Source: Candidatus Heimdallarchaeota archaeon B3_Heim (GTDB lineage: Archaea; Asgardarchaeota; Heimdallarchaeia; Hodarchaeales; Hodarchaeaceae). From it: a stretch of 32,000 bases of DNA. Position numbers and translations under genes: made by a program. The notes under the pieces were generated by a model, which did no database searches, was not told the DNA's origin, and saw only the letters and a program-made list of their open reading frames with translations. Positions 18,670 to 28,020 of the stretch are shown piece after piece. Location: assembly GCA_003144275.1 (NCBI GenBank), contig NJBF01000012.1, positions 30,001 to 62,000 on the forward strand. The letters run 5' to 3'. The first letter of the stretch is position 1. Every line of letters begins with the position of its first letter.

Positions 18670-19524
18670 GTGTTAGTTCACCTCTTAAAACAAGCGGAAT
18701 TTCAAATGGATTCTTGGCCACCACTAATCGAACAATTTTATCAGGAAATCTGTGACTCTTGTAATAAACAGATTGACCCCCACCGTTTCATCTTCGAAAG
18801 TAGAGCACTACTCCGATTAGACCTTGATAATTTAGCATTGGAAACTATACCATCATCGACTGGCGACATAGCTAGCTTACAAACTTTGAACCTAAGAAAT
18901 AACAGGTTAAAGGATCTTCCAAAGCAATTAGAGAATCTCAAAGCGTTAGAGGAGGTTTCTCTTTCGGCCAATTCATTTACGAAAGTACCTGAATGCTTAG
19001 TGAAAGTTTCATCATTAAAAATTCTTCATTTGGTTAAGAATCAACTTACACATCTTCCTGAAGACATGAGTAATTGGACTCTCCTACGTGAACTAGGTAT
19101 TGCTAAAAATGAATTAAAGAAACTACCTGAATCTATTGGTACATTGAAGAATTTACGTGAAATTTCATTATCGAAAAATCCACTTTCAACTTTTCCAGAG
19201 AACTTTAGTAAGTTATTAAATCTGAAATTCCTGTTTGCTTATTCATGCTCAATCCATTCCCTTCCAGAGAGTTTTGGTGATCTCAAATCACTCGAAAAAG
19301 TCGATTTGAGTAATAATCAACTAAGAAAACTCCCTACATCAAGTGAAGGGTTAACCAAGATGGAAAATCTTGATTTACAACAGAATCAGCTTACGACTAT
19401 TCCTTATACACTTTTATCCCTCCCTTCCCTAAAATATTTGAATTTGTCCAAGAATCCACTAACCGCTGAAACTCGAGCCCAATTATCATCACATACCGAG
19501 AAGAGTGTCAGAATGATCTATTAA
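18670..19524 (+). CDS. leucine-rich repeat protein (about ten 23-aa LRRs)
   Basis: Repeating LxxLxLxxNxLxxLP units (e.g. LQTLNLRNNRLKDLP, LEKVDLSNNQLRKLP). Start codon uncertain. Confidence 0.92.
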   Translation: MLVHLLKQAEFQMDSWPPLIEQFYQEICDSCNKQIDPHRFIFESRALLRLDLDNLALETIPSSTGDIASLQTLNLRNNRLKDLPKQLENLKALEEVSLSANSFTKVPECLVKVSSLKILHLVKNQLTHLPEDMSNWTLLRELGIAKNELKKLPESIGTLKNLREISLSKNPLSTFPENFSKLLNLKFLFAYSCSIHSLPESFGDLKSLEKVDLSNNQLRKLPTSSEGLTKMENLDLQQNQLTTIPYTLLSLPSLKYLNLSKNPLTAETRAQLSSHTEKSVRMIY

Positions 19525-21326: not shown

Positions 21327-23006
21327 TCAATTTGGTTTAAAATCTCGACGTAAGGGAGTAAACATAGGTACATATAATAGAGGAACCCAATCTTTGGGAT
21401 TAGGCCGCCAGCGACCGATAACGGCTTTCACTTCTTCTCCTTCAGTGAAGTTACAAATCTTAGGATTGTAATTAAAACCTCTTACCATCTTTTGATCGAA
21501 CATTGCCCAGTAGGGTTTGCCAGGATGACCCGCAGTCTTTTTCGTTGAGGGACTGAAAAAGTTTACACTCTTGATCCGAGCTCTTTTAGGGATTTGCACT
21601 GTTTCTAATTGCTCTCCGCAAATTCTCTTCGCATCGGAAGCATCCTTCTGTATTCCTCTAAGACATTTACCTTTCAATGCTTCAAATTTCATTGGAGGGG
21701 CAAAATCAGGAAAATTGTCTTTGCTCCAACTATCCCCGAAATAGACGGCTCCACATTTGGGGCAACCCTCAACTTCATAAAATTCTTCTGAGATAGGTTC
21801 ATAATCAATTAACGCAATATGTTTGGCTGCATTATCTGGATTATCTCGGAATCGGATATAATCATCAACGGATATTTTTTGCTTGTACTCAATCTGTTCC
21901 TGAACAGTAGGAACACCATTATTTGCAGCTTTAGATCCATTTTGTTTGACATTTATACTAATGACATCTGAACCAGCACCTGAACCATAAAGAACAGTCA
22001 TAATTTCATCGCCATCCTGAGCTCTTTCAATCGCATCACACAATGCGGTAGGAGCAGTTGCAGAATATCCATTGGCGATTTGGGGCGCCAAGTTCGAAAC
22101 CTTTACCTGAGGTTTGATACCAAGCATTTTACCATCAGTATCAAATTCTTTCTCAGCAAGTTTGACCTTATAGAAATTTGAAATATCAAGCAAGGCTTCA
22201 TTCGGGAAAGAACCATTCGGACTATGGATAACCCAAGTTTTATTAGGGAGACACTTGGGATCTATCGAATACCGTTCCACATGTTTCTTCACAGCAGATA
22301 AAATCATCCCACGAAAGGCTAAACTAGTACCCTGACCTTCATGTTCAGGAAAACTTTGTCCTTCTTTTCTAACGAAGTCTGAAAAATCATAATTAATGGA
22401 AGTACGGCCTTTAAGTTCAGCAATACCATTATCCTTCGCTAGGATAATCGTTGTAGAATAGAAAGAGGCAGAGAATTCAAGATCATCACCAGGTGCTCCT
22501 TGAGAAGCATCAGTGGCAGTAATTGCTACATATCGACAGCGATCCGCGTCTATCAGTGCAGCACCAATCTCTAAGAATTCTCCAAATGGTTTACAGGCGA
22601 ATTCTCCGCGTACTCCAAATCGTAAATTCGTCAATCCCGCTTTTCCAGCAATTGCTGTACTAGATTTTACAGCGTAGGGATAGGATTCGGATACTACGAA
22701 TAACGCATCAATTTGAGTGGGATCAATGCCCGCTCTTTTAACAGCATAGTTTAAGCTTTGAATGCCAGCGGTTAAAGCATCTTCATTTGGTCCAGGCACA
22801 ATTTTCTCTATTAATAAGAGACGTTGATTATATACCCACCGAACGGATCTTAATGCTTTACCTCTGAAACGGTTAACTGTGTTTTTCATCATTCTAAATG
22901 CAGTTTTATAATGCAATTGTGACATAGAATGATAATGATCAACTAACTCCTCTATTTCCAGCCGGTTGACAGGAATGAATGAAGCGATTGATTTAATCTC
23001 AGCCAT
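21327..23006 (-). CDS. archaeal HMG-CoA synthase-like domain fused to a C-terminal DUF35 (Zn-ribbon + OB-fold) domain
   Basis: SESYPYAVKS, EFACK (catalytic Cys), QGAPGDDLEF, HSPNG and YGSGAGSD match archaeal HMGS. The last about 160 aa carry GCPKCGAVYF...KC...ICG...RARIKSVNFF...PY...VKAV, as in DUF35/ChsH2 proteins. Confidence 0.82.
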   Translation of the reverse strand: MAEIKSIASFIPVNRLEIEELVDHYHSMSQLHYKTAFRMMKNTVNRFRGKALRSVRWVYNQRLLLIEKIVPGPNEDALTAGIQSLNYAVKRAGIDPTQIDALFVVSESYPYAVKSSTAIAGKAGLTNLRFGVRGEFACKPFGEFLEIGAALIDADRCRYVAITATDASQGAPGDDLEFSASFYSTTIILAKDNGIAELKGRTSINYDFSDFVRKEGQSFPEHEGQGTSLAFRGMILSAVKKHVERYSIDPKCLPNKTWVIHSPNGSFPNEALLDISNFYKVKLAEKEFDTDGKMLGIKPQVKVSNLAPQIANGYSATAPTALCDAIERAQDGDEIMTVLYGSGAGSDVISINVKQNGSKAANNGVPTVQEQIEYKQKISVDDYIRFRDNPDNAAKHIALIDYEPISEEFYEVEGCPKCGAVYFGDSWSKDNFPDFAPPMKFEALKGKCLRGIQKDASDAKRICGEQLETVQIPKRARIKSVNFFSPSTKKTAGHPGKPYWAMFDQKMVRGFNYNPKICNFTEGEEVKAVIGRWRPNPKDWVPLLYVPMFTPLRRDFKPN

Positions 23007-23027: not shown

Positions 23028-23160
23028 TTACTTTATATAAAAAATTCTTTTGATAGGTCTTATAGATACTTCTATTTTAATCCTATTGGCAGGAATAAAC
23101 GAGGCGGTCGATTTTATCACAGCCATTAGTTTAACAGTCCAGAGTTATTACCTATTATAA
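23028..23160 (-). repeat. diverged tandem copy (120-bp offset) of the promoter and first 19 codons of the HMGS-DUF35 gene, forming a 32-aa mini-ORF at 23028-23126
   Basis: MAVIKSTASFIPANRIKIE vs MAEIKSIASFIPVNRLEIE; 43/57 nt identical by hand count. A TATA-like box lies at the same offset before both ATGs (23153-23160 and 23033-23040). Confidence 0.85.
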
Positions 23161-27019: not shown

Positions 27020-27402
27020 TTTTTCATAATAAACTTGAAGAGGAGAGTATAGTTCAGTATCAATTTTTATGACCAGATTTCTGCCTAAATTATTGACGAG
27101 GATGAAATTCGGGAAGGTTCTCGTCTGCCTGGTGGTTACTATGGGATTATTTCATTCAGCATCAGACTCTCTGGGGTGATAAATTTCTTTATCATCGTGT
27201 CGAATTTTCTGGGACAGAATGGTCACTTTCTTTAAGATTTCCTACCATTATAGTAATTTTCTCGAAGAATTACCCTGAATTATTGAAGCGAACAACAATT
27301 TATAAGGAACATAATTCTCCTACCACTTAGTGTCCTGCCTACTAATAAATAAAGATTTTTTGTTGGTAAAAGCTTAATTCCAATAATTTGAAGGATGTAA
27401 AT

Positions 27403-28020
27403 ATGCAAGAAAATACAACTAATTTACGCATTTACGGCCCACAGATGCCTGAGGCTATTGAACGATTGCATAATCTAGAAGAGAAAGTAGTTGCTGAATT
27501 ACCCATCGAGCGTGGTGAGATCAATATTGGTAAGTATGATTATATTTACCACTGGGAAAAAGCACCCACTCCTGAGCCTTTATTAACTCTTATTGAATAT
27601 ATTGATGATATATTTACTGGTTTACCCGCTCGCTATTCCATTACTACAGAGGGATATCATTCTCGCCGATTAACAGCAGAACTTGACCGTCGGGGTTCAC
27701 ATACAACTTTCAGCTTTGTCCGGATTCACGGACCGAGCATATCGAAAGCTCTTCGGGCTATTGAAAAAGTTGTAGAAGATGTCGAGACTACAAGTACAAT
27801 ACAATCACTAAAATCGTCTGTTCTTGTAGGTGAGCAGGATTATGCCTTTGAATGGGATCATTATCCTACAGTGGATGAGATTCATAGTTTACTTGCCTCA
27901 ATCGATAAGCTAGTTGAACCTACAGGCGCTTTGTACAAAACGTCTACCTTAAAAAACGTCTATCGGACTGAAAAAGTGATTGACGATCATACTTCTGATA
28001 ATTTAATGGCATTCTTATGA
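27403..28020 (+). CDS. hypothetical protein built from two internally repeated domains of about 80 aa
   Basis: LRIYGP...IGKYDYIYHWEKAPT...IDDIF...ARYSITT vs VRIHGP...VGEQDYAFEWDHYPT...IDKLV...ALYKTST. ATG 27403 follows AAGGA; the ORF track starts at TTG 27388. Confidence 0.85.
   Translation: MQENTTNLRIYGPQMPEAIERLHNLEEKVVAELPIERGEINIGKYDYIYHWEKAPTPEPLLTLIEYIDDIFTGLPARYSITTEGYHSRRLTAELDRRGSHTTFSFVRIHGPSISKALRAIEKVVEDVETTSTIQSLKSSVLVGEQDYAFEWDHYPTVDEIHSLLASIDKLVEPTGALYKTSTLKNVYRTEKVIDDHTSDNLMAFL

Follow-up and report, generated by a model that had tools for sequence, protein, structure and literature searches.

A gene on the minus strand of the window, the whole stretch of 32,000 nucleotides analysed here (G000:C19:30001-62000, from a metagenome-assembled genome (MAG) of 3.95 Mb that is 94% complete), is probably the working 3-hydroxy-3-methylglutaryl coenzyme A (HMG-CoA) synthase (HMGS) of the mevalonate pathway in its Hodarchaeales genus. 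The predicted protein appears to combine an archaeal-type HMGS domain and a strongly diverged DUF35 scaffold in one chain, and, judged from the sequence, ordinary HMGS function in an unusual form is the most likely reading. The earlier note on this DNA had left two options, a fused entry enzyme of the mevalonate pathway or a neofunctionalised condensing enzyme. The first is favoured by an intact catalytic tetrad, by the status of the gene as sole HMGS in a genome that keeps HMG-CoA reductase and mevalonate kinase, and by its presence in 19 of 21 genus genomes; the second is less favoured, since it would deprive the pathway of its HMGS. The gene and its main domain are located as follows, in window coordinates and with lengths in amino acids (aa):

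21327 to 23006, minus strand: whole gene of the HMGS-DUF35-like fusion, 559 aa with the stop codon within the coordinates; homologs from Hodarchaeales MAGs are 70-97% identical and 555-569 aa long.
21837 to 23006, minus strand: HMG-CoA synthase domain, aa 1-390.

The open reading frame (ORF) at 21327-23006 translates without a stop into 559 aa, and the NCBI record names the product "hypothetical protein". A Pfam scan of the whole protein gave no DUF35 match at E ≤ 1, the sole match being a sub-threshold one to the FabH C-terminal domain. The NCBIfam model for archaeal HMGS, NF003274, matches residues 37-388 with 204.6 bits (cut-off 244), TIGR00748 matches with 179.7 bits (curated cut-off 353.35), and phmmer against the PDB ranks first the chain of HMGS from the complex 6ESQ/6ET9 of M. 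thermolithotrophicus (E 3.8e-42). From these matches, the HMGS part is predicted to have the thiolase-superfamily fold and to be nearest to archaeal HMGS. A word-based homolog search returned approximately 50 proteins of 555-569 aa with 70-97% identity over their full length, followed by an abrupt fall to ordinary HMGS of about 348 aa at 30-37% identity; the nearest homologs belong to MAGs that bear the label Hodarchaeales, Hodarchaeota or Heimdallarchaeota.

The predicted catalytic residues match those of a characterised enzyme of this family. In the HMGS of 6ESQ, the tetrad consists of E82, C114, H238 and N270, mutation of which abolishes HMG-CoA formation (PMC12960953). E107, C138, H261 and N312 of the fusion align to these 4 residues, and the tetrad is invariant across alignments of 25 and of 97 sequences. 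The codons, all assigned by alignment, are:

22686 to 22688, minus strand: Glu107, catalytic glutamate (E82 in the 6ESQ HMGS), invariant.
22593 to 22595, minus strand: Cys138, acetyl-accepting nucleophile (C114), invariant.
22224 to 22226, minus strand: His261 (H238), invariant.
22071 to 22073, minus strand: Asn312 (N270), invariant.

The retention of the Cys, Glu and His motifs, which the earlier note had read from the letters, is thus borne out by the solved enzyme, and so are the differences it had listed in neighbouring motifs (FACKPFG vs FACKAGT, SESYPY vs SESHPY, SASFYS vs ASAGG, for which it had given TAAAGG, ANGYSA vs GNTYSG). When 47 fused sequences were compared with 48 canonical HMGS sequences, 136 positions were conserved within both groups, 81 with the same residue and 55 (approximately 40%) with a different one. 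The hallmark motifs QGAPGD, DF.R, P.H, H.PNG.F, N.YS and GSGAGSD are common to both groups, while the changed positions include AGT to PFG directly after the catalytic cysteine, AGG to FYS, H234M, and K266S in PNGKF. The lysine of PNGKF may contact CoA, as in related enzymes.

The HMGS domain also carries lineage-specific inserts, 3 in total. An N-terminal insertion of roughly 25 aa had been proposed, and the alignment places it at residues 26-48 with a few more at 57-60; the 20-residue insert between His261 and Asn312 had gone unmentioned:

22827 to 22931, minus strand: N-terminal helical insert region, family-specific, aa 26-60 (inserted residues 26-48 and 57-60), lacking in more than 80% of canonical HMGS.
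22134 to 22193, minus strand: family-specific 20-aa insert, aa 272-291, between His261 and Asn312, defined by alignment, modelled as a helix and a strand, with a ratio of nonsynonymous to synonymous substitution rates (dN/dS) of 0.14.

In the AlphaFold model, the N-terminal insert forms helices at residues 33-47 and 52-62, with a predicted local distance difference test score (pLDDT) of 59-65. In pairwise comparisons of 8 orthologs, dN/dS is lowest in the HMGS core (0.05), followed by the C-terminal domain (0.085) and the inserts (0.13-0.14); these values are rough, as dS in the ortholog pairs is about 1.7 and close to saturation. With ratios as low as 0.05 and 0.085, both the HMGS core and the C-terminal domain appear strongly constrained.

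The fused protein is the only candidate for the HMGS step in its genome, since no archaeal-, bacterial- or eukaryote-type HMGS was found otherwise: a search of G000 for another canonical HMGS, the check that had been suggested, gave none with NF003274 (the other match is a thiolase), PF01154 or PF08540. HMG-CoA reductase (357 bits) and mevalonate kinase (228.8 bits) are both present above their cut-offs. An additional HMGS-like gene is present in 3 genomes of the genus (G001, G016 and G004). That of G001 and G016 has G-G-H-D in place of the E-C-H-N tetrad and is followed by a thiolase, which has the cysteine and lacks HDxF, and by a Pfam-positive DUF35 protein of about 200 aa (L016:3596-6540 in G001, L017:4594-7526 in G016). 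By its sequence, this operon bears the signature of a PhlACB/MucABC-type C-acyltransferase in an Asgard archaeon and is not an HMGS; with G-G-H-D and such an operon context, the extra genes would be no substitute for the fused HMGS. The extra gene of G004 (G004:C242, L026:1-800) is a partial, third-type HMGS-like gene at the edge of a 6-kb contig; it retains the Cys, His and Asn, shares about 50% identity with canonical HMGS, has a GC content of 34%, and could be a true paralog or a binning error.

These operons also bear on the idea that the fusion is a dead scaffold subunit, of the PhlA/MucA or Pseudomonas fluorescens HMGS-DUF35 type, that backs a thiolase-type acyltransferase. Units of the PhlA/MucA type lack the E-C-H-N tetrad (PMC12960953), whereas the 4 residues are present and invariant in the fusion, and the true Phl-like HMGS unit of the genus, with G-G-H-D, is another gene. 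We therefore regard a dead scaffold as extremely improbable.

The fusion is spread across its genus. A search with NF003274 of 24 genomes in the order, comprising the genus of the window (21) and others including the sister family, found the fused form of about 560 aa in 19 of the 21 genus genomes, at 182-205 bits; among the carriers are the single-contig genome G010 (4.9 Mb) and others with a completeness of 94-99%, and the 2 genomes without it are 71% and 80% complete. With the same gene being the sole HMGS in G000, the fusion is, as far as distribution goes, the standard HMGS of its lineage, a finding that the earlier note had set against its proposal of something out of the ordinary. The sister family (G022, G023) has no fusion; its HMGS is canonical (530-540 bits) and is encoded in one operon with a thiolase and a DUF35 protein.

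Two metagenomic proteins, P0124 and P0127, share 29% identity over the full length with the fusion protein (P0001), carry the same inserts and group in one clade with the genus proteins, with Shimodaira-Hasegawa-like approximate likelihood ratio (SH-aLRT) support of 96-99; all our trees are quick searches with SH-aLRT as the only support measure. Among 400 Asgard genomes, full-length matches to P0124 are confined to the genus of the window, and elsewhere only the HMGS part is matched. P0124 and P0127 retain many canonical residues, which, together with their grouping with the genus, suggests that the fusion predates most of the remodelling. In a first tree, the fused clade was nested among bacterial 348-aa HMGS, a placement that vanished once P0124 and P0127 split the long branch, and we therefore make no claim of a bacterial origin. 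Other apparent relatives were rejected as well. P0122 (3397 aa, 45 matched stretches, E 5e-57) consists of tandem repeats of about 57 residues whose weak matches sum up, and the open frames of G347 (560 aa) and G031 (734 aa) are ordinary HMGS genes followed by a thiolase. A genuine fusion is present in another Asgard family (G028:C96, L030:993-2513, plus strand), where a protein of 506 aa comprises a canonical HMGS and a DUF35 domain (Pfam zf-ChsH2 at 376-411, OB_ChsH2_C at 413-477). Since its HMGS part nests with ordinary Asgard HMGS, being 71% identical to P0076, this fusion is of independent origin and is probably younger. Nearby genes encode, among others, a hydrogenase maturation protease and a NiFe hydrogenase.

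We next consider the 165 residues at the C-terminus, for which a DUF35 origin is likely, and which comprise 2 segments, the second resembling an oligonucleotide/oligosaccharide-binding (OB) fold:

21609 to 21776, minus strand: expanded 4-Cys Zn-ribbon-like segment, aa 411-466 (C415, C418, C448, C463), with 4 invariant cysteines; DUF35, and the Zn ribbon that Pfam detects in the G028 fusion, align with its first knuckle.
21348 to 21608, minus strand: OB-fold-like segment, aa 467-553, with the model pattern beta-beta-(beta)-helix-beta-beta and a collinear hhalign match to the OB part of DUF35.

The 4 cysteines are invariant in 25 fused homologs. The first pair forms CxxCG..YF as in DUF35, and the second pair is spaced by 14 residues, compared to CxxC in DUF35. 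Using hhalign, 49 C-terminal sequences aligned to 15-17 DUF35 proteins over 97-115 collinear columns at a probability of 53-55% (P 1.2e-4); the score, 32.5, lies above the 26.4 reached at most in 30 column shuffles and the 16.1 of a reversed control. The alignment pairs the first Zn knuckle, the strand after the ribbon and the near-terminal G.(E/K)V strand, and requires gaps of 13 and 12 residues within the Zn ribbon, so that the inserts noticed there from the letters are recovered. An earlier run against 6 DUF35 sequences had matched only the last 27 columns (probability 41%); the match rose with 15-17 DUF35 sequences and with P0124 and P0127 added, and the DUF35 homolog search itself gave 9 proteins. 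In an ESM-Atlas feature search, the top-10 family-bearing matches all belong to the family or clan of the best match, DUF35 (PF01796/PF12172); the best match has a score of 0.87 with 191 of 256 features in common, which by the calibration of the tool is a lead only. In addition, BLASTP of P0001 against the G028 fusion is collinear from HMGS through the linker to the first CxxCG..YF knuckle. By contrast, phmmer against 1.8 billion representatives retrieved no DUF35 protein, only the fusion's own family and P0124. The assignment is thus one of remote homology, and of the proposal that HMGS and DUF35 form one polypeptide, the single ORF of 559 aa stands plainly, whereas the DUF35 identity of its second part is without a Pfam match and is to be read at that remote level.

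Structure prediction gives some indication of where this domain would sit. AlphaFold with 25 close homologs gave a model too poor for use (pLDDT 60.8), and an alignment of 97 rows yielded a usable full-length model (pLDDT 83.2, predicted template modelling score (pTM) 0.89). Past the linker helix, the model has a beta-hairpin, the Cys knuckles and then beta-beta-helix-beta-beta, an order that fits an OB fold. Foldseek and VIA wide searches with the full-length model were filled by thiolase-fold chains via the HMGS domain, so that the C-terminal part was barely sampled. In VIA, bacterial and eukaryotic HMGS chains align to model residues 549-551, approximately 40 aligned residues beyond archaeal HMGS, and the C-terminal subdomain of VirC fills the exact DUF35 site of the archaeal complex (PMC11522927). 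Taken together, these 2 observations suggest that the fused domain is positioned on the DUF35 platform of the HMGS.

Several observations weigh against reading the gene as an HMGS fused to a DUF35 scaffold. The protein lies below both curated HMGS cut-offs, NF003274 and TIGR00748, and all genus orthologs are likewise below that of NF003274 (about 182-205 bits). The 55 changes among 136 group-conserved positions include K266S, H234M and AGT to PFG at sites that are 100% conserved elsewhere, making an altered substrate or partner possible, and the fused clade stands on a very long stem (2.3-5.4 substitutions per site). For the C-terminal part, neither PF12172 (zf-ChsH2) nor PF01796 (OB_ChsH2_C) is matched at E ≤ 1, and an HMMER profile of the domain searched against the PDB returned no DUF35 chain and only chance matches (LIM kinase, E 0.6).

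The low scores, the long stem and the changed 40% of conserved positions, several of them beside catalytic residues, would suit a neofunctionalised condensing enzyme that uses another acyl-CoA/ketoacyl-CoA pair or performs an extra Claisen step, with HMG-CoA coming from elsewhere or not from the fusion alone. Relatives of the complex have been repurposed before (PhlABC, MucABC; PMC12960953), and a Phl-like operon is present in the genus. However, the full tetrad and the HMGS hallmark motifs are invariant, unlike in PhlA and MucA, and the fusion is the sole HMGS candidate where HMG-CoA reductase and mevalonate kinase persist. Moreover, P0124 is fused yet keeps many canonical states, which indicates that fusion and remodelling are separable. 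A changed reaction is therefore quite unlikely, as it would leave the pathway without its entry enzyme, and we continue with the reading as a working HMGS.

A working HMGS needs acetoacetyl-CoA, which raises the question of a thiolase partner. As the earlier note had stated, no thiolase gene lies in the window, nor on the rest of contig C19; none adjoins the fused gene in 7 orthologous loci, and none is on the contig of P0124. The note had also asked where the thiolase lies; tblastn of G000 identified 3 archaeal-type thiolases, on contigs C43, C47 and C52, each with its own DUF35-type gene behind it (118 aa on C43, 220 aa on C47 and a fusion of DUF35 with a short-chain dehydrogenase/reductase (SDR) on C52). 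The C43 thiolase is nearest to the operon thiolase of the sister family (41-43% identity). HDxF and GHP are retained in all 3, as HDAF in the C43 protein. The nucleophilic cysteine is present only in the C52 enzyme: the C47 thiolase has no cysteine at this position, and the C43 thiolase has a proline (PASG versus CASG of the P. furiosus thiolase 7YVY). C52 additionally carries a bacterial-type thiolase-like gene with the cysteine.

Loss of the nucleophile is seen in operon-type thiolases of several Asgard lineages, with proline in L004:206-1393 (G000:C43:68464-69651), aspartate in G022 (L018:4547-5755) and glycine in G031 (L031:2274-3431); the operon thiolase of G347 retains the cysteine. The residue pattern around the nucleophile is kept in the G000 C43, G022 and G031 thiolases, and HDxF and GHP are present in those of G000 and G022. 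The C52 cluster (L006:1604-10669) encodes an enoyl-CoA hydratase, a Zn-dependent alcohol dehydrogenase, the thiolase, the DUF35-SDR fusion, an acyl-CoA dehydrogenase, a second hydratase, the bacterial-type thiolase and a 3-hydroxyacyl-CoA dehydrogenase, and is akin to the archaeal thiolase/DUF35/reductase fatty-acid module of Sulfolobus (bioRxiv 10.1101/2024.07.05.601840).

The fusion may still build a channelling complex, in which its DUF35 domain would recruit a thiolase dimer from elsewhere, either the Cys-bearing C52 enzyme or the Cys-less C43 protein, which would then bind CoA without catalysing; acetoacetyl-CoA would be handed on via a CoA site common to both partners, as in 6ESQ. In the solved complex, DUF35 bridges thiolase and HMGS (PMC11522927, PMC12960953), and the P. 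fluorescens HMGS-DUF35 fusion does assemble with thiolase (PMC12960953). The C-terminal domain has a dN/dS of 0.085 and many invariant exposed-type motifs, and HDxF and GHP are present in the C43, C47 and C52 thiolases. On the other hand, the gene is unlinked to a thiolase at every locus examined, the archaeal-type thiolases each already have a DUF35 neighbour, the nucleophilic cysteine is missing from the operon-thiolase ortholog, K266 of PNGKF has become serine, and the Zn ribbon has 2 inserts. Channelling is thus a possible but clearly less probable arrangement, and the classical complex with a thiolase encoded elsewhere, which the earlier note had implied, is doubtful given the proline that replaces the nucleophile in the operon-like C43 thiolase. 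We lean, by a narrow margin, towards an enzyme that is independent of a dedicated, co-encoded thiolase. This lean follows from the missing thiolase linkage, the DUF35 partner that each thiolase already has, the Cys-less operon-type thiolase and the changed canonical invariant residues. The strong conservation of the surface-type motifs WRP, YVPM and FNYNP in the C-terminal domain pulls the other way, as it would also fit a retained protein-binding role.

The data show the domain architecture, the conserved residues, the distribution and the pathway setting; from them we infer the enzymatic activity, how the C-terminal domain folds and where it sits, and which thiolases supply acetoacetyl-CoA, as follows. 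Cys138 would be acetylated from acetyl-CoA, according to the chemistry of the family; Glu107 would generate an enolate, which would attack acetoacetyl-CoA, bound by His261 and Asn312, at its keto group; and hydrolysis would free HMG-CoA for the separately encoded HMG-CoA reductase. The C-terminal 165 residues would be a strongly diverged DUF35 scaffold, with an expanded 4-Cys Zn ribbon and an OB-like barrel, fused in cis and modelled on the HMGS face that is used by the free archaeal DUF35 and by the bacterial/eukaryotic C-terminal extension. Acetoacetyl-CoA may come from the Cys-bearing thiolases of the C52 acyl-CoA cluster, with the fused domain acting mainly as a structural subdomain. It seems unlikely to us that the fusion and the change at about 40% of otherwise conserved HMGS positions mark a genuinely different mechanism at the start of the pathway, in which the Cys-less thiolase-like protein, together with its DUF35, would serve the enzyme as a pseudo-enzyme partner, or in which an acetoacetyl unit would be obtained or made without a classical thiolase. 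If true, the first isoprenoid steps of these archaea, which are closely related to eukaryotes, would be organised unlike those of any characterised system.

The surroundings of the gene contain further features of interest. The following lies about 120 bp upstream, outside the enzyme:

23028 to 23126, minus strand: mini-ORF of 32 codons, a diverged duplicate of approximately the first 19 codons of the HMGS gene.

The duplicate is likewise found upstream of the orthologs in G005 and G006 (L023, L024) and not in 4 more distant species; it is possibly a leader or a remnant. A 210-aa protein encoded at 27388-28020 of the window (plus strand) consists of 2 repeats of about 100 aa and has no Pfam match. 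In 4 relatives (L019-L022), its ortholog is the next conserved gene 5' of the fused HMGS, at a distance of 420-1040 bp and on the other strand; in the window, the two are separated by genes for an aminotransferase and a double-Lrp protein. At 18670-19524 (plus strand), a 284-aa protein is composed almost entirely of leucine-rich repeats (LRR_8, E 8e-36), and its gene is flanked by 2 genes for EamA-type transporters.

If the reading as a working HMGS holds, the fusion would be the starting enzyme of isoprenoid-lipid synthesis in one Asgard genus, with a scaffold partner that is barely recognisable. In nature, a scaffold would here have been taken up into its enzyme, and the two parts would have changed extensively afterwards while strong constraint persisted. 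The fusion and the operon-type thiolases without the cysteine in several Asgard lineages reopen the question of where acetoacetyl-CoA comes from. It also has a practical side: because the protein is named "hypothetical protein" and scores below both HMGS cut-offs, automated reconstructions can report a Hodarchaeales mevalonate pathway without its entry enzyme.

How does the fusion compare to known systems? We found no paper on its Asgard form, and a survey of archaeal mevalonate genes does not mention it (PMC11052028). Relative to the thiolase/HMGS/DUF35 channelling complex (6ESQ), the DUF35 module is fused to the C-terminus of the HMGS, has diverged past Pfam detection and has 2 inserts in its Zn ribbon; the HMGS has 3 extra inserts and 55 altered conserved positions, there is no thiolase gene cluster, and the most operon-like thiolase is without its nucleophile. 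In the PhlABC and MucABC C-acyltransferases (5M3K, 9VBO), catalysis falls to the thiolase-like unit and the tetrad is missing from PhlA and MucA, whereas the tetrad of the fusion is intact and the Phl-like operon of the genus, in G001 and G016, lies at a locus of its own. Bacterial and eukaryotic HMGS (MvaS 5HWO, S. aureus 1XPL, VirC 8S81) have an extra C-terminal module packed on the DUF35 platform, as is suggested for the fusion, but they belong to another HMGS subfamily, whose models PF01154 and PF08540 fail to match the fusion, and their extension is not a Zn-ribbon/OB module.

Bacterial HMGS-DUF35 fusions share the arrangement of an N-terminal HMGS and a C-terminal DUF35; one from Streptomyces albus DSM 41398 is credited to Voegeli 2018 and cited here as given in PMC11522927. 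The search of 1.8 billion representatives with phmmer provided no sequence link between the C-terminal domain and these proteins. In the P. fluorescens PfACAT/HMGS-DUF35 complex, the HMGS unit lacks the tetrad, is inactive and is clustered with a thiolase (PMC12960953), unlike the fusion described here, which has an intact tetrad and a gene that stands alone. Within the phylum, the architecture recurs in the G028 fusion, which is collinear with P0001 into the first Zn knuckle; its 2 domains are canonical and Pfam-positive, whereas both have diverged here. The HMGS-DUF35 architecture is therefore not new, and the Hodarchaeales protein is a diverged, lineage-wide form of a known arrangement.

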